From: a virus
Taxonomy: Duplodnaviria > Heunggongvirae > Uroviricota > Caudoviricetes
Length of the DNA stretch: 38,209 bases
Direction: 5' to 3' (one strand)
Virus record (IMG/VR): IMGVR_UViG_2545824644_000015
Span: 1 to 38,209 of that record
Part shown: in pieces, positions 1-10,008 of the stretch
Numbering within the stretch: the stretch's first letter is position 1
How the letters are laid out: each line of letters opens with the position of its first letter
Position numbers and translations under genes: made by a program
Notes under the pieces: generated by a model
Database searches by the model: none
What the model saw: only the letters and a program-made list of their open reading frames with translations
Told to the model about the DNA's origin: nothing

Positions 1-1158
1 ATGCTCACCGTTAAGCAGATTGAAGCAGCAAAGCCGAAAGAAAAACCATACCGCCTTCTCGATGGTAATGGCCTGTACCTTTATGTCCCTGTATCAGGGA
101 AAAAGGTATGGCAGCTTCGCTACAAGATTGACGGTAAGGAGAAAATCCTGACCGTCGGAAAATATCCGCTTATGACTTTGCAGGAGGCAAGGGATAAAGC
201 ATGGACCGCGAGGAAAGACATCTCGGTTGGCATCGATCCGGTAAAAGCGAAAAAGGCTTCGTCTAACAACAATTCCTTTAGCGCCATTTACAAGGAATGG
301 TACGAGCACAAGAAGCAAGTCTGGTCAGTAGGCTATGCAAATGAACTTGCAAAAATGTTTGATGACGACATTTTACCCATCATCGGCGGTCTTGAGATTC
401 AGGATATTGAGCCGATGCAACTGTTGGAAGTAATCCGCAGATTTGAAGATCGCGGTGCAATGGAGCGAGCCAACAAAGCCCGCAGAAGATGCGGCGAGGT
501 TTTCCGTTACGCTATTGTCACTGGTAGGGCTAAATATAACCCGGCACCTGACCTTGCTGACGCCATGAAAGGATACCGCAAGAAGAACTTCCCGTTTCTT
601 CCTGCAGACCAGATCCCGGCATTCAACAAAGCACTGGCAACATTTTCAGGAAGTATCGTATCGCTCATTGCGACCAAAGTTTTACGCTACACAGCCCTAA
701 GAACGAAAGAGCTTCGTTCCATGCTATGGAAGAACGTCGATTTTGAAAACAGGATTATCACCATCGACGCCAGTGTGATGAAGGGTCGCAAAATTCATGT
801 GGTTCCTATGTCAGACCAGGTGGTTGAACTTCTCACTACGCTAAGCTCTATCACCAAACCAGTATCAGAGTTTGTTTTTGCCGGGCGCAACGATAAGAAA
901 AAGCCAATCTGCGAGAACGCGGTATTACTTGTGATCAAACGAATCGGCTATGAGGGTCTGGAAAGCGGTCACGGATTCAGGCATGAATTCAGCACGATTA
1001 TGAACGAGCACGAATGGCCTGCTGACGCTATTGAAGTGCAACTGGCACATGCCAACGGCGGATCTGTGCGTGGGATTTACAACCACGCTCAGTATCTCGA
1101 TAAGCGCAGGGAGATGATGCAGTGGTGGGCGGACTGGCTTGATGGGAAGGTGGAGTAG
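1..1158 (+). CDS. int: Tyrosine site-specific integrase (P4-like N-terminus)
   Basis: 385 aa ORF; N-terminal MLTVKQIEAAKPKEKPYRL...GLYLYV motif typical of phage integrases; C-terminal HGFRHEF (H-x-x-R) and RGIYNHAQY catalytic-Tyr region. Confidence 0.9.
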   Translation: MLTVKQIEAAKPKEKPYRLLDGNGLYLYVPVSGKKVWQLRYKIDGKEKILTVGKYPLMTLQEARDKAWTARKDISVGIDPVKAKKASSNNNSFSAIYKEWYEHKKQVWSVGYANELAKMFDDDILPIIGGLEIQDIEPMQLLEVIRRFEDRGAMERANKARRRCGEVFRYAIVTGRAKYNPAPDLADAMKGYRKKNFPFLPADQIPAFNKALATFSGSIVSLIATKVLRYTALRTKELRSMLWKNVDFENRIITIDASVMKGRKIHVVPMSDQVVELLTTLSSITKPVSEFVFAGRNDKKKPICENAVLLVIKRIGYEGLESGHGFRHEFSTIMNEHEWPADAIEVQLAHANGGSVRGIYNHAQYLDKRREMMQWWADWLDGKVE

Positions 1159-1330: not shown

Positions 1331-2458
1331 CTATAATTGATCGCCTTCTATTTTTTCAACTCGAGTGGTTGAAACATCATTCTTAAATCCACTCCACCAT
1401 TTTCTTAGCTTATTGTTTATTGGCTTTTCAAAAAACAAATACATCATTATTGATATAAATAATGAAGCAAACAGAGCCATTACTATAAATTTAATTACAT
1501 TTATAGCACCAAGACCAGAAACATTAAAGAACTTGCTCAATGTACTGATTACTATAGTGTGGACCAAGTAAAATGAAAAAGAAGCATCACCTAAAAGTAT
1601 CATAACTTTATTTGATATTATTTTTGAAATAATACCACCATTAAACGAAAACACTAATATTGAAAAGGCCATTGATGGTATAAAAAGCGCATCATACTGT
1701 AATCCATTGCTATTTTGACTTTTTGCCACCATATAGACAGACATTAGGATAAAGACTACAGATGATATTTCAGCAAATGATAGAACTAAATATGACGGCT
1801 TTGACTTAAACTCAAAATATAGTTTACACAATATAATACCGATTAAAAAGTCAGGCAACCTATTAAAAGGGTTTATGTAAAAGAACCAGTGAGAGAACGC
1901 ATCACTAATTTCCCCATAGCTTGCCATGTAAATAACATTAATTAAAATTAACGCAGCAAACAAAGCGAGCATTCTTTTTCGCGCGAAAATTATAAAACAA
2001 AAAGAAACATAAAAGAACATTTCTACAGAAATGCTCCAGGATACTGCATTGAATGAGAAATAGTCTTCCTTATCTACTGAGTAAGACTGAATTAATAGTG
2101 CATTTTTTATTATAGACAATATATTTGGTGAGAATCCACCACCTAATATTGAGTGTCCAACTATAAACACAGTCAAGCAAAGCAAATGTACTGGATATAT
2201 TCTAAATACTCGATGCGCAAGAAAATCAACGAAACTTCCGTTTCCATTACGCAATGAAATAGTAAAACTATATGTTAATATAAACCCAGATAAAATAAAA
2301 AAGAAAGTAACACCAGAATACCCAAGTTTAAAATATTCAAATGATGAAGCAAAATCTCTATTACTTGAATTTTGTATTACCGCCATGTGGCTAAAAAACA
2401 CCCCAAGGGCTGCAAATGCCCTTAGGGATGTCAGGCTATTTAGTCTTTCTGCGCGCAT
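1331..2458 (-). CDS. oac: Integral-membrane acyltransferase-3 family protein, probable O-antigen O-acetyltransferase (serotype conversion)
   Basis: Highly hydrophobic multi-TM ORF; N-terminus LTSLRAFAALGVFFSHM typical of acyltransferase-3; very AT-rich; sits between tailspike and integrase as oac does in Sf6. Start chosen at internal Met 13. Confidence 0.75.
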   Translation of the reverse strand: MRAERLNSLTSLRAFAALGVFFSHMAVIQNSSNRDFASSFEYFKLGYSGVTFFFILSGFILTYSFTISLRNGNGSFVDFLAHRVFRIYPVHLLCLTVFIVGHSILGGGFSPNILSIIKNALLIQSYSVDKEDYFSFNAVSWSISVEMFFYVSFCFIIFARKRMLALFAALILINVIYMASYGEISDAFSHWFFYINPFNRLPDFLIGIILCKLYFEFKSKPSYLVLSFAEISSVVFILMSVYMVAKSQNSNGLQYDALFIPSMAFSILVFSFNGGIISKIISNKVMILLGDASFSFYLVHTIVISTLSKFFNVSGLGAINVIKFIVMALFASLFISIMMYLFFEKPINNKLRKWWSGFKNDVSTTRVEKIEGDQL

Positions 2459-2567
2459 GATACACCTATGTTTTAATGCACAAAAATGCAACAAAAGATT
2501 GATGATACCATAAGCAACAGAAAAATCACATGATCACTTACTCACGTTCAACTTGTACCATCAGAAT

Positions 2568-5108
2568 CTAAATTATCTGCGTCACTGACAATGCTTTCTT
2601 TAACACCACTCCTCCGCTCGTTGTTGCTCCCTTTGAGTACTCAAAGGAGATATTGGCTGAAATGCCAAGATTCTCATCAGGACAATACCACCAAATTCCA
2701 ATAGGGAGCACAGATGCCTTGTCATAACTGACAGTGCGATCATACGACGACTGGTACCCATTGAAGTCATACCATTTAAACCCAGTAATTGCGTTGCCAG
2801 CAATCATGCAATCAGTGCTCATAACTACACCAAACGCATTCTTAATATTAGATGCAACTAATATGGCACTCATTGCGATATTCCTAAAGCTACATGACGT
2901 CACAGAGTATCCATTTGTATTTGCGTTTATAACTCCTATTTCTCCAAGGAAAGTCGTTGTCCTTATAGATCCATTAAAAAAAGATGTTGATTTTGTCCCT
3001 CTAAGACACACTCCCACATCAGACTCAAACGCGCTATCAGATATATCGATATACGTTGAACTTGCTGATGGATTATTCTTATAAAAGCTAACTCCGTAAT
3101 TTAGATTATTGAAATTACAACTATTAACCCTTACAGATGATACTCTTGCATCATATAAATAAAGGCCTGCCGTCATCCCTTCAAGGTGTGTGTCGTTTAA
3201 TGGAAACACTGCATTATCCCCAGCCTCGTTAGGATCATTCATTAATGTTTTAGGGTTTGTGAATTTATTTTTAATTATCGATGTAAACTCATCACAAAAA
3301 AAGTCATGTGATGCGCTATTAATTACCTTAAACCCTGAGAATCCGAATGGCTTCCCACCAGAGATTATTGCCAAACAAAATGCTTGCGCCCCACCGCGTA
3401 TTCTATATTGATTTGATTTTGATTCAAATTTAAAATTGCCTTGTAATGTTGAGTTGGTGATACAACTAAAAGAGTTACCTATGTATGATACGTTATTATT
3501 ATATGATGACGTTATGCTATAGCTGTTTACTTTATTTCCAGATATAAGAACATTATCACAAAAAAATTGAGCACATATCCCTGATTTTGATGTAACAACA
3601 TTATCAGACATTATGCTATGAATAACCATTGAGTGAAAAGTTATGCCCCAATGATCATGGCTATACGAAGTTGATATTAATGGATCGTTTATTATATTTC
3701 CAGTGCAGTTAACATAACAAACTTGCCTATATACTCCTATTGTTGAATCATTCAACCCAAGAGTTGAGCAAATGTTATCTTTAATAGAGCAAACAGAACT
3801 TGATGTGGCATAGCTAAACATAGCTTCTGGGATATTCCCTGTTAATCTATTCCTCTCGAATCTACCAGAATAACAATAATATCGCATCTCAACATGGACA
3901 TTATGGAAGTTACAACCAATCACTTCTGGCTCGATCTGAGACAAAAGCATGATTCTTCTTAGAGCATTGCTACTGCTTTTCATCGTCACACCATCTTTAA
4001 TTTTGAATGGCGTAAGGTTACCTGTTGGGAACCCAAATTTCGCAGTCCCAGCCACCTGATTTACCACCAGAGGTTGCGCCAAAATAGCCTTATTGGTAGT
4101 TGTATGACCTATAATTTTTGTTACCTGAATGAACTGAGATTGGTATCCATTCAAGTTACGTGTAAGTGCCAACCCATCTATGCTGTCAGCAGGTGTGGTG
4201 GATTTTTCCGCTTCATCAATACAGAACGGATATCCATTATCAATGACGACATATTGCCCTGTGCGATCTACACCATCGAGATATACCTCAGAGTGCCCTG
4301 CAGATGCAGGCTGAGAAAAAACTGTCATAGTTGGGAAGTCATATGGCTCAACCCTAAAATGATTACCCAATGTTATTGTGCCACGACCATATATACCTTT
4401 TGCCCCGGCTGGCGCTGTATAATCTGTTGTGGTGGTAAGGTCAGCTCCTGTAATGTTTACTTCTTCTCCGAAGTTAAACGCTGCCGTCAGTGCCTGCTCG
4501 GTTGTTACAAACCTATTGGTGTAGTTAAGGATATGGTTTAAATCATATCCGTTAAGATTCCCTACAGACTTCCAGTTTGAATCTGGTGAACTACCAGGAG
4601 GGACAGTTAATGGAACTGACAGATCACCAGTATAAATGTAATACCACCCAGTTGATGAATAGAATAGTGCCTGATATTTACTTGTTATCGTTGCACCAGA
4701 AGCAAAGGATACATTTTGCAGGCGTTTATAAACATTAAATCTAAAATTTTCATTAGCGTATAAAGAAAACTGATCTGGGTCGTACCCTAAAACATTCGGA
4801 AAATAGAACTGCTTCGCCCCATACGCATCGTACACAGCCATAGAATGGCCTTGCACAGTTACGAACTTGGCAATCTGTCCGTTATATACCGGGTAACCAG
4901 CAGCGTTAATGATGATTGGTTGAGAAACAGGAACGTGAGAACCGTCTTCGTTCTCCACATAAACCTGAATCCGGTTTTCAGGATTTACAGGGTCAGTGTC
5001 AATTTTACCGATATAAATTTCGCCATTAGCTACGGCTTTAAAAGAACGAGCCATAGTGAAGAGTTGCGAAGGCATCGATACAATCACATTAGCTGTAATG
5101 TCTGTCAT
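2568..5108 (-). CDS. Tailspike protein (P22-type head-binding N-domain fused to divergent receptor-binding domain)
   Basis: 846 aa; N-terminal ~115 aa [45 protein letters not shown]... matches the conserved P22/Sf6/HK620 tailspike head-binding domain as remembered; rest is an AT-rich, Asn/Ser/Thr-rich beta-helix-like domain. Confidence 0.9.
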
Positions 5109-5164
5109 TTAATTTGCTCCAGATACAAGGAATCGCCGCAGCGGGGCTACGGTGAATTTTGGGC

Positions 5165-5190
5165 ATAAAAAACCCAGCCGAAGCTGGGTC
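5165..5190 (-). terminator. Rho-independent terminator upstream of tailspike gene
   Basis: Plus strand aaaaaacccagccgaagctggg; on minus strand GC stem cccagc/gctggg followed by U-run. Confidence 0.6.
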
Positions 5191-5354
5191 GTTGCGTTGG
5201 TTATCTGTCAGTAGTTATGTACTGGCTGAAGGATTTGTACAAAAAAATCACCTGACGGTGGGTTAATTTTTGCATTTACCTGGGCCATATTGACTACTTA
5301 TAAAATGAGATCAATATTTAATCGCCCAATAACGGGTGTATGTTGAGGTATATC

Positions 5355-5534
5355 ATGGCGAAAAAACCAGGTGAAAACACAGGAAAAAACGGCGGAATAT
5401 ACCAAGAAGTTGGCCCACGCGGCGGTAAGAAAGACAATTTTGCCACCGTCAAGGACAACGAAAGGCTTCCACCAACAACAAAGCCAGGTCATGGCTGGGT
5501 ATTAGATAAGCGAACTCCAGACAGCAAAAAGTAA
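5355..5534 (+). CDS. Small conserved protein of unknown function (tentatively YjzC-like)
   Basis: 59 aa MAKKPGENTGKNGGIYQEVGPRGGKK...; RBS gagg 7 nt before ATG; own terminator immediately downstream. Family assignment from memory only. Confidence 0.55.
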   Translation: MAKKPGENTGKNGGIYQEVGPRGGKKDNFATVKDNERLPPTTKPGHGWVLDKRTPDSKK

Positions 5535-5540
5535 TAATCA

Positions 5541-5563
5541 AGCCGGGTCACTCCGGCTTTTTG
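5541..5563 (+). terminator. Rho-independent terminator
   Basis: agccgg-gtcact-ccggct hairpin followed by ttttt. Confidence 0.65.
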
Positions 5564-5913
5564 ATATGTCGCTCGCAGAACTCAACAAGCCTGCTCATTA
5601 AGTAGCAGTAAGTCTCGTTGGCTCTTCCTGGTTCAACATCAACACCGACCCTTGAGCAGATATCGAATGCCATGTGAGCGCACTCATGGGCAATAGTAGA
5701 TAGTTTGCCATTGAACACGCCTATCACATGCAAAACACCATTCTCGCTGCTCATTGTATGAGACGCTCCGTTGGCATCCGAGTCCTGCACGTCCACACCA
5801 AGTTTTTGATGCAGGCGTTGCCATTCTGGAAAGTCTCTACAAAACACAATTGTACCGCTCTCAAAGAGCGGAACGAGCATCTTTGGTACGTTTCCAATGT
5901 TAACTTTTTTCAT
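5548..5913 (-). CDS. Hypothetical protein with HExxH motif (possible small zinc metallopeptidase, ImmA/IrrE-like)
   Basis: ORF with internal start MKKVNIG (AGGA 4 nt upstream); contains HECAH with downstream Glu residues; no other recognisable domain. Confidence 0.4.
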   Translation of the reverse strand: MKKVNIGNVPKMLVPLFESGTIVFCRDFPEWQRLHQKLGVDVQDSDANGASHTMSSENGVLHVIGVFNGKLSTIAHECAHMAFDICSRVGVDVEPGRANETYCYLMSRLVEFCERHIKKPE

Positions 5914-5947
5914 GGTATCCTGCGCAAAACTAAGGAGGTTGGTGTGA
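5913..5947. repeat. 35-bp exact repeat copy 1 (tggtatcctgcgcaaaactaaggaggttggtgtga) carrying SD plus GTG start
   Basis: Identical to 7678..7712; contains aaggagg SD and GTG start of the downstream plus-strand gene; reverse strand supplies AGGA RBS and abuts start codon of the minus-strand HExxH gene. Confidence 0.9.
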
Positions 5948-6333
5948 AGCAATTTCTTGCTGCTATGTTCTTATTCATATCTTTTGGGGCTACAGCAGAG
6001 TGCTGGGTCGTTGGAGATATGCGCGGAATAAGCTATTCAGAACGAAATAATTTCCATCCGGAAGAAGATGGTTTTAGTGGAACATTCATCATTAAGACAA
6101 GCGGTGAAGATGCCAGCATCACATATTCTGGGACAGATGCGGGCGGCATGGCTTACAAAGCATTGTCTAAAAACTCCATCATAGGAATCGGCGCGAATGG
6201 CGAAACTCAACGCGTTATCGACTCATGGGTAATACATCCTACTGGAACAGTTTTAATGTCAAAAACCATTTCCGGTTATGGAAATATGGATTCAACCAAA
6301 GCTTTTGTTGGAAAAGTAAAAAGAAAATGTTAA
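5944..6333 (+). CDS. Secreted/periplasmic hypothetical protein (signal peptide)
   Basis: GTG start 7 nt after aaggagg; N-terminus VKQFLAAMFLFISFGATA-ECW has n/h/c signal-peptide architecture; Cys near both termini of the mature protein. Confidence 0.6.
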   Translation: MKQFLAAMFLFISFGATAECWVVGDMRGISYSERNNFHPEEDGFSGTFIIKTSGEDASITYSGTDAGGMAYKALSKNSIIGIGANGETQRVIDSWVIHPTGTVLMSKTISGYGNMDSTKAFVGKVKRKC

Positions 6334-6354
6334 TGATAGGATTATGGCCCTACA

Positions 6355-6540
6355 TCAACAGGTTACGCGCCCCTGAGTAATTCTATTGCGGATTTGCTTC
6401 TTACGGTGGTTTAGGCTGGAGAGCTTGTCTTCTGCTTCTGATATTTGCGCATCCAGATCTTTAAGTTCAAGCTCTGAAAGTCGCTGGTCAAGCAGGGTTT
6501 GGTTTAACTCAATGTTGTTCAGACGTTCTTCTATGGTCAT
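6355..6540 (-). CDS. Small coiled-coil hypothetical protein
   Basis: 61 aa; strong RBS taaggag 6 nt before ATG; heptad-like Leu/Glu-rich sequence. Confidence 0.45.
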   Translation of the reverse strand: MTIEERLNNIELNQTLLDQRLSELELKDLDAQISEAEDKLSSLNHRKKQIRNRITQGRVTC

Positions 6541-6552
6541 GATTACTCCTTA

Positions 6553-6580
6553 TAAAAAACCCACCTGAAGGTGGGTTTTA
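6553..6580. terminator. Bidirectional rho-independent terminator
   Basis: aaaaaa-cccacc-tgaa-ggtggg-tttt; A-run and T-run flank a perfect 6-bp GC stem so it can terminate either strand. Confidence 0.75.
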
Positions 6581-6583
6581 TAA

Positions 6584-7552
6584 TTAGATTTCTGGTTTCA
6601 TTCTTCCGAAAACCTTTTCTATTCCTTTTTCGTATTCTTCTCTTGTCTCACTCATCGCTGCGACACCAAGAAGCTTACCGATATGCTGACGCAAAGCCTT
6701 GACACCAATTTCAGAAAGGAACAGATGCAACTTATCAGATTGTTTTCCGTTCTCGTCTCGGCTGGCTCGAATCTGTTCAAGGATTTTACCTTTACTCTTT
6801 GCTAGCGGGGTGTATATCTGCATGTTGGTTAGCTGCCCAAAACGAATAGGTCGTCCTTTCTCTGGCCTATTCAGGCCGTACAGTCGATACCACTCCTCGT
6901 ATAGCTCATCTGGAAATTCCTTTTCATATTGACGAGCCTCTTCACGAACAAACGCTTTGAACTCGTCAATGACAGCCTGAACTTCTGGACGATAACCAGC
7001 AAGCGCATACGCAACCCCCTTAATTCCCGCCTTAGCGGAGGCATTAATAAGTCTCTGTGCTGCGGCGGCTGCCTTTAACCGTGATTGTGGTAGATCGTCA
7101 TTATCTTTGGCTTCTATTAGTGCCCTACCAATATCAACAATTGCTGTAATGTCATAACCTAACGCTTGATGAACGGTTTTAGACTTCGAAGTAAGTTGAA
7201 ATTTATAGGGATTTTCCATTTTTCGCTGCAATTCTAGATCTCGGTATTTGCTCATATACTGAGCGCCAAGCAGTTGATCTAAATCCCTGGCATGTTCACC
7301 AATCCCTAGCAACTGAGATAATCCAGTTTTCGTAACAACGACAGTTTTCGACTCGTCATCCAGTACATAACATTCAGCATCAATGCCAAAATCATCTAAA
7401 AAGTTACCACGATGAGTTGCCCTGAGAATCTTACTTTTCCATCTTGCAGCAGCTGCTTTCTTTGCTATTTCAGAACGCTGCTCTTTAGTCAGCGACTTTG
7501 CGCGAGCGATCCCGCCCTTAGCTTTCCCTTCGCCACTTTTCTTTTCAGTCAT
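6584..7552 (-). CDS. Hypothetical protein, P63C-domain-like with basic N-terminal region
   Basis: N-terminus MTEKKSGEGKAKGGIARAKSLTKEQRSEIAKKAAAARW resembles the conserved N-terminal motif of phage P63C-domain proteins (from memory); start placed at Met22 so the operator-like repeats lie upstream. Confidence 0.5.
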   Translation of the reverse strand: MTEKKSGEGKAKGGIARAKSLTKEQRSEIAKKAAAARWKSKILRATHRGNFLDDFGIDAECYVLDDESKTVVVTKTGLSQLLGIGEHARDLDQLLGAQYMSKYRDLELQRKMENPYKFQLTSKSKTVHQALGYDITAIVDIGRALIEAKDNDDLPQSRLKAAAAAQRLINASAKAGIKGVAYALAGYRPEVQAVIDEFKAFVREEARQYEKEFPDELYEEWYRLYGLNRPEKGRPIRFGQLTNMQIYTPLAKSKGKILEQIRASRDENGKQSDKLHLFLSEIGVKALRQHIGKLLGVAAMSETREEYEKGIEKVFGRMKPEI

Positions 7553-7553
7553 A

Positions 7554-7643
7554 ATGCAAGCACCTTTGTTGTGATGTATGCTTGCATTATATGCACTGTA
7601 CACACATACAAGCAAGCATAAAACAAAAACAAAATGCTTGCAT
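7554..7643. promoter_or_regulatory. Cluster of four 10-bp operator-like repeats (ATGCTTGCAT and inverse) in divergent intergenic region
   Basis: ATGCTTGCATTA at 7578 and 7634 (identical 12-mers); inverted near-copies ATGCAAGCAC at 7554 and AAGCAAGCAT at 7610. Confidence 0.5.
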
Positions 7644-7677
7644 TACAACCGCGCTACTCCAACTACACATTATCATC

Positions 7678-7712
7678 TGGTATCCTGCGCAAAACTAAGG
7701 AGGTTGGTGTGA
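7678..7712. repeat. 35-bp exact repeat copy 2 carrying SD plus GTG start
   Basis: Identical to 5913..5947. Confidence 0.9.
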
Positions 7713-8158
7713 GTGAAAAATTATCAGTTGAGATTTACAGGGATGCCAAAAAATTGATTAAAAAGGCATTGCTGATTTCCCTATCTTTGTTAGCCATTGC
7801 CATTGTTTATTTTGTGGCAGACAAAATCTATACAGAACAAAAAAATAGCAAAAAAAGCGCTGAACTGATTATGCGAGCCGAAAATGCTGTCAAGGGTAAA
7901 TCACCCATGGTATTCAACAGAACATTCCTTGGCGAAAGCTCCTCTATTTCTGTTTGGTTTATTAATGATTCAGATGGGCATATTCTTGTAGAAAAAAACG
8001 GTGAAAAATCATTGTTTTCATCAAGAGAATCCGTATACGGTGGCATCAATGCATACCATCAAGCCGGAAAGGCATGTGAAACCCTGTCTTTTTCTATGAC
8101 TTCAGGTTTTGTGATATCTGTTTCTTGCGATTTTGATGATTATTACACTAAAAAATAG
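7709..8158 (+). CDS. Membrane-anchored hypothetical protein (candidate superinfection-exclusion/moron product)
   Basis: GTG start after aaggagg inside the repeat; basic N-terminus followed by hydrophobic segment LLISLSLLAIAIVYFV; occupies the sieA/immI position of P22-like phages. Confidence 0.5.
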   Translation: MSEKLSVEIYRDAKKLIKKALLISLSLLAIAIVYFVADKIYTEQKNSKKSAELIMRAENAVKGKSPMVFNRTFLGESSSISVWFINDSDGHILVEKNGEKSLFSSRESVYGGINAYHQAGKACETLSFSMTSGFVISVSCDFDDYYTKK

Positions 8159-8175
8159 CCATCCATGGCATTTAG

Positions 8176-10008
8176 TCACTGCTGTGTTGCCTCAGTAGCA
8201 AACAGCGGTCTGATGGCATTCGCAGCATTATTTAGCGCTCTTTCATAGGCTGGCGTTCCTGCTTTGGTGTTTGCCAGACGTAAGAGCGCATTCCTGGCCA
8301 TAGGGCTTTCATAAACCCTCGACATAAGGCCAATCCCTGTTTCCCCAGCCAATAGCGCGCCTCCGGTTTTTAGGTTACCAATAACCCTTACCAAAGGCGC
8401 GAGTGTCATGCCAGTCTTCGTCACAACATTAGCCTCAGATGCTCTTTTGGTAGCATCGAGAATAGATAACATCCCCTCTATCTCTTTTCCGTTCTTCCCA
8501 CCAAATACAGTTTTAAACACCTGACCATTTGCTTGTTTTTGCAGTTTGCCAAGCTCGCTCATCATTTTCTGAGGGCTGTCACCTACCTTGTCAGCTATTT
8601 TGCTGATATATGCCGCCCTTAGCATGTCTTTACCTTTTTGATCGAGTTTCCCGTACAATCGAGCTATATCTGACCCATATTGTCCATACACAATGGTATT
8701 TACAGCCTCGGGAGTTAAATCTCCTTTGTTTAGAACGTTTTTAAGGCGCGTTTGAGTTGCATGTGTTGCCATTTTTGCATAATCAGCTTTTCCCGCTCTC
8801 CATGCTGAAGCATCTTTTGGGCTAAGTCCTTTCGCTATAGATTTACTAAGGCTATTGGTTAGCGAGTTATAGACCCTGTCGACCATTGTTTGCGACATTG
8901 ATGGCAGAACTGTACGATCGCCTTTTACGTCAATGCGGAACTGAGTTCTCAGCTTATCAAGTAACTCAAAGGCATCATCTCCATTTGTTATCTCCTGAAT
9001 GGCATTCTTATAATCATTAAGCGCAGAAATGGTCTGGGTGTCAGAAACACCTTTAAGTTTCCCAAGTTCGTTTACTGCTCCGTCGATAGCTCTTATGGCG
9101 CCACTTGTATCAACTGGCTTTCCAACCATTCTTCCTGACAGGCTGTTTAGTTTTGACTTGGCTAACGATTTTTCCCTTGCAACGCCTGACTTTAGACTAT
9201 CAACGACTACAGATGGATCGTAGTCGCCGTATTTTTCGGTGAAGCGATTAACAAGCTTGGTTCTGGCATCCTGCTGTGCGGATCTCATTGGTCCAGTACC
9301 AGCTATGACTCCTTCTGAGTAACCCTGCAGTTGATTGCCAAGTTTTGTTTTTGGAGGAACTACATCCGATGTCATAACTGGTACATCTGCCGCAGCGGCA
9401 CGCTTGAGCAATTGCTGATCTGCTGGTGATATTTCGCCACGAACAGCAGTAATTCCACGCCCTATTCCCTTTGCTGCTGCGGAAAGAACCCCCTGAGCGG
9501 CAAGGTTAACTCCGGCATTTTTAGCTGCATTTTGTGCGAAATCGCCTTTCTGATTTGCGGCCTCTGCCAGTGAGCCAATAGCCATGCTTCCTGCCGTTCC
9601 AACTCCTGGAACTAAATACCCACCAATTGTTTCACCGGCTTGCGCGTAGGGGTCTGTCGGTCGATCGACAGGGCGATAAACATCATCCAAAACCTTGGGG
9701 CCACCAAGCCCTTGGCTGATTGCATTAATCAGACTTGCGCCACCCTGCAATACGTCAAATGGTATGTTTACCAGACCGCGACCAGCCTGCTCTGCAATTT
9801 GCCCTGCACTTTGACCACCTGTGAGCCAATCGCCAGCTTGTTGCATCAATGATAGTTCTTCACGTGCTGGTTCATTATTGGCCTGATTAACTGTTTGTTG
9901 CTGAACAGCCTGACCAGCAAAATACTCATCAATGGCGGTGCCAATATCTTCCGTGCTCGTACCATCAGGGAAGGTAAATGTCTTACCGTTTGCAGTTACT
10001 TTCATCAT
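8176..10008 (-). CDS. Ejection (DNA transfer) protein, P22 gp16-like
   Basis: 610 aa, Gly/Ala-rich; position and size match P22 gp16; N-terminus [22 protein letters not shown]. Confidence 0.8.

Follow-up and report, generated by a model that had tools for sequence, protein, structure and literature searches.

The gene hkcC, whose region is named "ant moron" or immI in phage P22, has entered the literature as a gene of unknown function (PMC2629481). Nearby, sieA of P22 encodes a polytopic inner-membrane protein, and the gene together with 85 base pairs (bp) of upstream DNA suffices for exclusion (PMC10883804). Among described metallopeptidases, the MPTase domains of polyvalent proteins have a phage-borne core that comprises a sheet and a helix, an HExxH helix and a Glu helix (PMC5512222), and the ImmA/IrrE proteins (M78) are small cytoplasmic HExxH...E proteins of mobile elements. 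Here we analyzed a stretch of 38,209 nucleotides (nt) that makes up IMG/VR virus record IMGVR_UViG_2545824644_000015 (hereafter the window) and represents a P22-like (Lederbergvirus) phage or prophage. A preliminary description of this DNA had singled out a divergent gene pair, namely a minus-strand open reading frame (ORF) of 121 amino acids (aa) with the motif HECAH and a gene for a secreted protein of 129 aa, and had proposed that the two are coupled through a shared 35-bp element as a protease-based module. Our analysis identified the 121-aa ORF as hkcC, which very probably encodes a zincin-type hydrolase that depends on zinc, and comparison of related loci indicates that the two genes are neighbours by cassette insertion and not partners.

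The window contains every feature listed in the preliminary description. The ORF shows 98% DNA identity to hkcC of HK620 (AAK28904, "unknown"), and the HkcC protein is 100% identical in HK620 and P22 (tblastn). The HK620 and P22 copies are the same gene as that of the window: their DNA is 98-99% identical to it, they encode the same 121 aa, and they too lie between gene 16 and the tailspike gene. More broadly, positions 5101..5946 of the window align with HK620 at 98% and positions 5225..5946 with P22 at 99% DNA identity. In the record of P22-pbi, hkcC is present without annotation between t_mnt/orf59a and P_sieA, and in other phage records it is labelled hypothetical or hkcC. The protein matches phrog_1365, a group of unknown function (E=1.4e-39).

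Conservation, putative zinc site and predicted fold of HkcC

A word-indexed search recovered 32 HkcC relatives, down to 43% identity, in which STxAHECAHxAF and ANET are kept, and an exhaustive profile search returned 551 cluster representatives at E<=1e-3, nearly all of them 100-190 aa long. A search of 150 relatives for fusion partners found none; the only additions were low-complexity tails and, in one case, an uncharacterised extension at the N-terminus. When 118 diverse homologues (23-44% identity to the query) were aligned, the invariant columns were exactly four, namely H76, E77, H80 and E100, and the first three are also invariant in 19 closer homologues. Between the second His and the Glu there are 19 residues. 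The four residues correspond to a zinc site of the gluzincin type, and thermolysin-type gluzincins have the same ligands, the same 19-residue spacing (His146 to Glu166 in thermolysin) and an Asn before the Glu. Conservation of HExxH among homologues and a metallopeptidase fold in structure prediction had been set beforehand as tests in the preliminary description, and HkcC passed both: the motif, together with Glu100, proved to be invariant, and the predicted topology is that of a zincin. Within the window, HExxH was found in hkcC alone of 203 ORFs (stop-to-stop, >=60 aa).

The AlphaFold2 model of HkcC has a predicted local distance difference test score (pLDDT) of 83 and a predicted template-modelling score (pTM) of 0.80. 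Its topology is beta-beta-alpha-beta-beta, the elements predicted N-terminal to the active-site helix being strands at residues 11-13 and 21-25, a helix at 28-37 and strands at 52-56 and 59-65; the HExxH helix spans residues 74-88 and the Glu helix residues 100-116, starting at E100. This predicted topology agrees with the core that Iyer et al. 2017 (PMC5512222) gave for zincin-like MPTases. When the model was compared with BFVD using Foldseek, many uncharacterised phage proteins matched it with template-modelling (TM) scores of 0.5-0.78, and the few annotated matches are described as SprT-like, PolyVal metallopeptidase or metalloprotease, including a PolyVal-annotated protein at E=6e-3 and TM 0.55. 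The earlier suggestion of a minimal zincin is thus very probably correct, given the invariant motif, the predicted topology and the nature of these structural matches, and HkcC would bind zinc and act as a protease.

Searches of PDB gave a fainter picture. The close HkcC alignment found nothing in a sequence-profile search and single distant members gave nothing useful; the wide alignment returned 13 sub-significant matches. Nine of these are zinc peptidases and four are virion RNA polymerases (vRNAPs), matched within aa 2130-2448 of chains of 3,296-3,500 aa, a region that Iyer et al. assign in N4 vRNAP to a zincin-like MPTase domain (PMC5512222). HkcC differs from the polyvalent MPTase domains in being a stand-alone protein of 110-130 aa and not a domain of a giant injected protein, and the sequence similarity between them is not significant (E about 1).

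In profile searches of the kind that the preliminary description had suggested, HkcC matched no Pfam family, and two of the 118 relatives match SprT-like (PF10263) at E=1e-4, the window protein itself being without a match. In the extended motif of SprT/Wss1 the third ligand is a His, whereas the corresponding ligand of HkcC is predicted to be a Glu on the next helix, and HkcC has no zinc-ribbon or DNA-binding tail. The sole matches in the scans of HkcC and of the secreted protein were spurious lantibiotic ones, due to the string 'HEC'.

It could also be considered that HkcC is an ImmA/IrrE-like protease that inactivates one of the repressors Mnt, Arc or C2, and thus an immI anti-repressor. 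The HExxH...E site resembles that of M78 peptidases, hkcC lies beside mnt-arc-ant in P22, and BFVD contains faint matches annotated as 'IrrE protein'. However, these matches are poor (probability 0.16-0.44, TM <0.4), and no Pfam match to M78 (PF06114) was obtained for HkcC at E<=1 or for any of the 118 relatives at E<=0.01. No Xre-type helix-turn-helix (HTH) repressor gene lies next to hkcC in any context examined, and its genomic setting also differs from that of ImmA/IrrE. In addition, hkcC persists in the window and in HK620 despite the deletion there of mnt, arc and ant, and its family occurs in tail-gene and lysis-terminase contexts. In agreement with the preliminary description, which had set the protein apart from ImmA-type proteases, we regard this role as very unlikely.

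Some HkcC relatives have a second candidate peptidase for a neighbour. In locus L088 (1330-1968) the relative adjoins a 212-aa protein belonging to Pfam PF18894 'PhageMetallopep', and a 212-aa protein also stands beside a relative in locus L097 (6376-7014), where its assignment to PF18894 is merely presumed. If this presumption holds, two different putative metallopeptidases would lie side by side in both contexts. Alignment of the HkcC-family profile with the neighbouring PF18894 protein by hhalign gave a probability of 3%, and the two aligned at HExxH alone.

Selection on the gene was assessed in 80 P22-like loci, i.e., viral contigs encoding HkcC at 99-100% identity. They contain 37 nucleotide alleles of hkcC that specify merely five protein variants, and the differences among alleles comprise 29 synonymous and four non-synonymous variants (88% synonymous, the chance expectation being 21%). 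Third codon positions account for 29 of the 33 variants, which are spread over the whole gene. It follows from these figures that hkcC is a real gene selected as a protein, and it is under strong purifying selection. This bears on the idea that hkcC may be non-functional in P22-like phages, its DNA being kept for P_sieA and as a recombination anchor. Such an idea could draw on the near identity of hkcC DNA amid varying flanks and on the promoter embedded in its 5' end, but the excess of synonymous variants extends along the whole gene and the four catalytic residues are kept down to 23% identity, and we consider it barely credible.

Further observations concern the copies of the family. The KKP[EA] C-terminus of close homologues is encoded by the stem of the terminator at 5540-5559, where RNA structure and not protein function may be the constraint. 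Phage ST64T carries an HkcC paralogue, orf-129 (2962-3351), with HECAH...ANETYCY, between its lysis genes and small terminase. Phages ST-35, SE1 and SW-70 contain two match sites of the HkcC family per genome, and the window contains one copy.

The sieA slot and the secreted 129-aa protein

The gene divergent from hkcC was examined in each of the 80 loci, and at least ten unrelated proteins were found in this slot. They include a 161-aa lipoprotein (17 loci), the secreted 129-aa protein (10/80 loci), two kinds of 109-aa HkcB-like proteins, a 106-aa protein, SieA (164 aa), proteins of 62, 68, 75 and 99 aa, and the 149-aa protein of the window, which lies directly beside hkcC in two other loci. 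Nearly all of them have a signal peptide, a lipobox or a transmembrane segment, and nearly all of their genes begin at the same GTG behind the same 30-nt leader, GGTATCCTGCGCAAAACTAAGGAGGTTGGT. BLAST blocks shared with the window end at 5940-5953, 6332/6337, 6348-6555 and 8178, which are leader and gene ends. The sieA locus of P22 and the 129-aa gene have in common the slot, the upstream DNA with the position of P_sieA, and the 30-nt leader with GTG; their products differ, as SieA is polytopic and the 129-aa protein is a soluble-looking barrel with a signal peptide and no sequence similarity to it. By its leader/GTG junction, its orientation divergent from hkcC and its location upstream of gene 16, the 129-aa gene fits the positional class of sieA-slot cargo.

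The 35-bp element occurs as two exact direct copies in the window (Table 1), for which the chance expectation in 38 kb is ~1e-12. It consists of the last base of the hkcC start codon, the 30-bp spacer between the start codons of hkcC and the 129-aa gene (5914..5943), the GTG and one more base. The annotation of P_sieA in P22-pbi (locus L001, 3159-3189) can be transferred through 99.2% identical DNA to the first ten codons of hkcC in the window, on the strand opposite to hkcC. A sigma-70 consensus scan found no hkcC promoter, a result that says little because the annotated P_sieA was likewise missed. The second copy of the leader heads the gene of the predicted 149-aa membrane protein, which had no Pfam match; there is no adjacent hkcC, and the P_sieA region is absent there. 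Between the copies lie the 129-aa gene, a 61-aa ORF, a terminator and a P63C-domain gene, and the second copy was absent from all other fetched loci. On the simplest reading of these sequences, the element is a common leader with ribosome-binding site and GTG that would serve as a homology joint for cargo exchange, and two cargo units are stacked here. The element noted in the preliminary description exists, and as an exact repeat, but it appears to be a leader and recombination joint and not the co-regulatory element of a two-gene module.

The module itself, in which hkcC and the secreted protein would be co-regulated through the 35-bp element and act in exclusion or toxin/immunity, could be argued from their divergent arrangement only 30 bp apart, with one promoter inside the other gene, and from their pairing in 10 of the 80 loci. 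However, the other 70 loci pair hkcC with other, unrelated proteins, the secreted protein is found without hkcC, and the element also precedes a second unrelated gene that has no hkcC beside it. Moreover, HkcC lacks a signal peptide, unlike the partner proposed for it, which is predicted to be exported. Comparative genomics largely refutes the proposed protease-based pair, and we would grant it a minimal chance at most. Because the slot partner varies, the 129-aa protein occurs without hkcC and SieA suffices alone, the functional coupling proposed for the two genes is not supported, and the loci compared speak for neighbours brought together by cassette insertion.

Concerning the secreted protein, its gene starts at the GTG at 5944, not 5945, with an AAGGAGG box 5 nt upstream. 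The N-terminus, MKQFLAAMFLFISFGATA followed by EC, has the typical shape of a signal-peptidase-I substrate, with cleavage after ATA, and Cys20 (6001..6003) and Cys129 (6328..6330) are kept in homologues, as expected from the features listed earlier for this protein. It has a single, N-terminal hydrophobic segment and an all-beta body, which is predicted to form an 8-stranded beta-barrel. Taken together, sequence and model suggest a periplasmic protein with an N-to-C disulfide. Pfam, NCBIfam and PADLOC scans gave nothing meaningful, a PDB profile search gave nothing useful, and SieA is absent from its list of homologues. The small periplasmic or surface 8-stranded barrels to which it can be likened (NHBA C-domain, HpuA barrel, PliC/PhiA-type lysozyme inhibitors, Cap15 barrel) are 4-14% identical to it with no family-level match, and the likeness is fold-generic and assigns no function.

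An 87%-identical copy of the protein is found in P22-like prophages that lack any HkcC homologue (hmmsearch). There (loci L108-L111, 4399-5390) it is encoded by the third and last gene of an operon, after mnt and a Rap1a-like protein that matches PF18602, a family of type VI secretion system (T6SS) amidase-immunity proteins, at E=1e-14. By analogy with this neighbour, a further role of the barrel may lie in periplasmic immunity or inhibition, to the benefit of the lysogen.

The features of the locus, which lies between the tailspike gene and the gene of ejection protein 16, are given in Table 1. The virion and late genes past the tailspike are on the minus strand. An Rfam scan of positions 5000-8300 of the window gave no match above any gathering score.

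Table 1. Coordinates of the features of the window discussed in the text.
Feature	Position	Strand	Remarks
Integrase	1..1158		
O-antigen acyltransferase	1331..2494	minus	
Tailspike	2568..5108	minus	P22 head-binding domain
orf59a	5355..5534	plus	59-aa YjzC-family protein, phrog_3202; convergent with hkcC
Stem-loop terminator between orf59a and hkcC	5540..5559		overlaps last hkcC codons (KKPE-stop)
hkcC	5548..5913	minus	ATG at 5913; 121-aa stand-alone zincin-like protein, phrog_1365
Glu100 codon	5614..5616	minus	proposed third zinc ligand
HExxH codons	5674..5688	minus	H76-E77-C78-A79-H80 (HECAH)
P22 P_sieA equivalent	5883..5913	plus	inside first 10 hkcC codons; by position from P22-pbi annotation
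35-bp element, copy 1	5913..5947	plus	5' leader, AAGGAGG and GTG of slot gene
Secreted 129-aa protein gene	5944..6333	plus	GTG start; phrog_2651
Signal peptide of 129-aa protein	5944..5997	plus	
61-aa coiled-coil ORF	6355..6540	minus	phrog_7586
Terminator between 61-aa ORF and P63C gene	6553..6582		
P63C-domain protein gene	6584..7552	minus	322 aa; P63C E=6.8e-14
35-bp element, copy 2	7678..7712	plus	exact repeat
149-aa predicted membrane protein	7709..8158	plus	second slot-type gene; starts at GTG of copy 2
Gene 16, ejection protein	8176..10008		

Other repeats were also noticed in this part of the window. The 61-aa ORF recurs in many P22-like loci in differing arrangements. Between the P63C and 149-aa genes there is a 34-nt imperfect inverted repeat (7552-7585 / 7612-7645, 79% complementary, 26-nt spacer), which may be operator-like or form a large hairpin and gave just spurious miRNA-type Rfam matches. 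Three related terminator-like hairpins (ATAAAAAACCCAGCCGAAGCTGGGT and variants, 72-88% identical) are located at 5165-5189, 5239-5263 and 6552-6576, at module boundaries, and in the annotation of HK620 the ant and mnt terminators are said to have left the first two behind as remnants. These hairpins may be further recombination joints.

Genomic contexts of HkcC relatives and the orf59a neighbour

In all temperate-phage contexts that were examined, hkcC shares its strand with the late genes. In the window, P22 and HK620 it is flanked by genes 16 and 9. Relatives in siphovirus prophages are found between the genes of the tail chaperone and the tape measure, and others between Rz/Rz1 and the small terminase in Kluyvera and Mixta prophages, locus L083 and ST64T, as well as, by ORF resemblance, in Citrobacter prophages. 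In the N4-like Escherichia phage Bp4 (locus L121, 3953-4279), a 108-aa relative with HELNH and a downstream SE(A)YCY belongs to a series of small ORFs that is divergent from the terminase genes and located where the permuted genome is joined. From the known organisation of N4 genomes, we take this series to be probably an early region. The family was matched in virulent N4-like phages, among them Gamaleyavirus and Klebsiella phage KP8.

In the P22-like phages, no conserved dedicated promoter of hkcC is possible upstream, because the DNA there is a variable cargo gene. The late strand and the lack of a conserved promoter of its own together point to antiterminated late read-through and to a role in lytic growth. 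By analogy with P22, transcription of hkcC most likely results from such read-through, running from gene 16 in the direction of the tailspike gene. The contexts suggest that HkcC is a lytic-cycle protease.

A location on the virion-gene strand, beside the ejection genes 7/20/16 in podoviruses or the tape measure gene in siphoviruses, would also suit a morphogenetic or ejected protease, which might process the ejection proteins or the tape measure protein, accompany them, or be delivered into the cell together with the DNA. MPTase domains are indeed typical of injected polyvalent proteins, e.g., N4 vRNAP (PMC5512222), and the weak profile match of HkcC falls there. On the other hand, hkcC is accessory, being absent from P22-like prophages that carry the Phage_P22_gp16, Inj_translocase and P22_gp7 genes, and other relatives are flanked by lysis and terminase genes or lie in what is probably the early region of an N4-like phage. 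Furthermore, the P22 virion is well studied and to our knowledge has no HkcC-like component, which weighs against an ejected enzyme. We consider this explanation quite improbable.

The commoner neighbour of hkcC is orf59a, which in the window is 98% identical to orf59a of P22 and which is adjacent to and convergent with hkcC in 80 of 93 loci. Its homologues are named 'YjzC family' in records; PF14168 is present in distant homologues and was matched by the window protein at E=1.3e-3. It accompanies every placed HkcC relative of 43-63% identity, i.e., those of siphovirus prophages of Klebsiella, Rosenbergiella, Xenorhabdus and Proteus, of a Pasteurellaceae genome and of metagenomic contigs. In the Klebsiella, Rosenbergiella and JGI contigs with gene calls, the pair is flanked by the tail-chaperone gene and the tape-measure gene, and hkcC is on the late strand. 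The identities of the two proteins fall in parallel (43% for HkcC with 61% for Orf59a, and ~60% with 76-81%), and in loci L119/L120 an orf59a homologue adjoins an hkcC remnant. As far as these loci tell, the link is separable in both directions: in 11 P22-like loci a 74-aa membrane protein replaces orf59a, HkcC relatives of <=42% identity and the relative of Bp4 are without it, and some orf59a homologues (68-74% identity) have no HkcC in their neighbourhood. The terminator between the two genes is annotated as bidirectional tORF59A in HK620 and as t_mnt in P22, and it has a good T-run on the plus strand alone. A search of the literature on orf59a found nothing new.

Such frequent adjacency raises the question of whether HkcC and the YjzC-like Orf59a form a two-gene cassette, in which the late-expressed protease cleaves the small protein, is inhibited by it or is otherwise functionally tied to it. 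Orf59a would then be made by the prophage; in P22 it is co-transcribed with mnt. The persistence of the pair in all siphovirus-prophage relatives of 43-63% identity, the parallel divergence and the hkcC remnant beside orf59a are in favour of a cassette. However, the link is broken both ways, by the 74-aa replacement and by the occurrence of each gene alone, and co-inheritance of 0.55 kb of adjacent DNA may be simple linkage. A functional cassette of this kind is in our opinion rather unlikely, and the same holds for its extension to a mobile conflict cassette. In this extension the prophage strand would supply the small protein, and the minimal zinc protease, produced in lytic growth alone, would remove it or be restrained by it; the pair would be switchable between lysogeny and lysis and would have moved among the late operons of podoviruses and siphoviruses. 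In a related scenario, the HkcC family as a whole may be a stand-alone counter-defence protease that cleaves a host immunity protein; a literature search for phage metalloproteases, HExxH and anti-defense returned nothing.

Favoured explanation and significance

We favour, as reasonably probable, the explanation that HkcC is a stand-alone cytoplasmic zinc peptidase of the lytic cycle directed at a host or rival-element protein, and that it is independent of its neighbour, a prophage-expressed periplasmic barrel carried as sieA-slot cargo. The zinc ion would be held by His76, His80 and Glu100, with Glu77 as the general base, and the enzyme, expressed late, would act during lytic growth on its host or rival-element target. 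The 129-aa gene would be driven by a P_sieA-type promoter inside the first hkcC codons, and its product would be a soluble periplasmic 8-stranded barrel, clamped by the N-to-C disulfide, that probably acts at the envelope in superinfection exclusion or lysogen protection. The 35-bp leader would be the joint through which cassettes are exchanged, with the result that two cargo units came to be stacked in the window. Homology, motif invariance, purifying selection, partner variability, separate occurrence and mosaic joints are observed directly; from them and from the models we infer zinc binding and proteolysis, late expression, the periplasmic location and the disulfide, and any biological role of HkcC or of the 129-aa protein.

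Several points weigh against it. Only two of the five AlphaFold2 models of HkcC are confident, and Pfam, NCBIfam and PADLOC scans of the protein found no family match. Terminator-like hairpins are present on the late strand upstream of the tailspike gene, and because of them late read-through is argued from what is known of P22. The role given to the 129-aa protein is guessed from the slot that its gene occupies. With regard to genetics, hkcC is not isolated by the deletions of a published P22 study.

The existence of hkcC as an ORF, the fold superfamily and the catalytic logic were already known. New are the zincin assignment of a widespread phage family that has no model, its breadth, and the picture of the sieA slot as a socket. 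The family amounts to several hundred clusters of ~120-aa phage proteins with an invariant H-E-x-x-H...E site that Pfam models do not cover. P22 and HK620 rank among the most thoroughly studied temperate phages, yet their hkcC has been listed under "unknown function" from 2001 onwards. For this gene the assignment provides a concrete, testable biochemical hypothesis; it is an advance in annotation and not a new kind of system. The sieA slot, for its part, can be pictured as a socket, formed by a constant promoter and the 30-nt leader with its GTG, in which unrelated genes for envelope proteins replace one another, and this picture helps the mining of prophages for exclusion or lysogenic-conversion genes.

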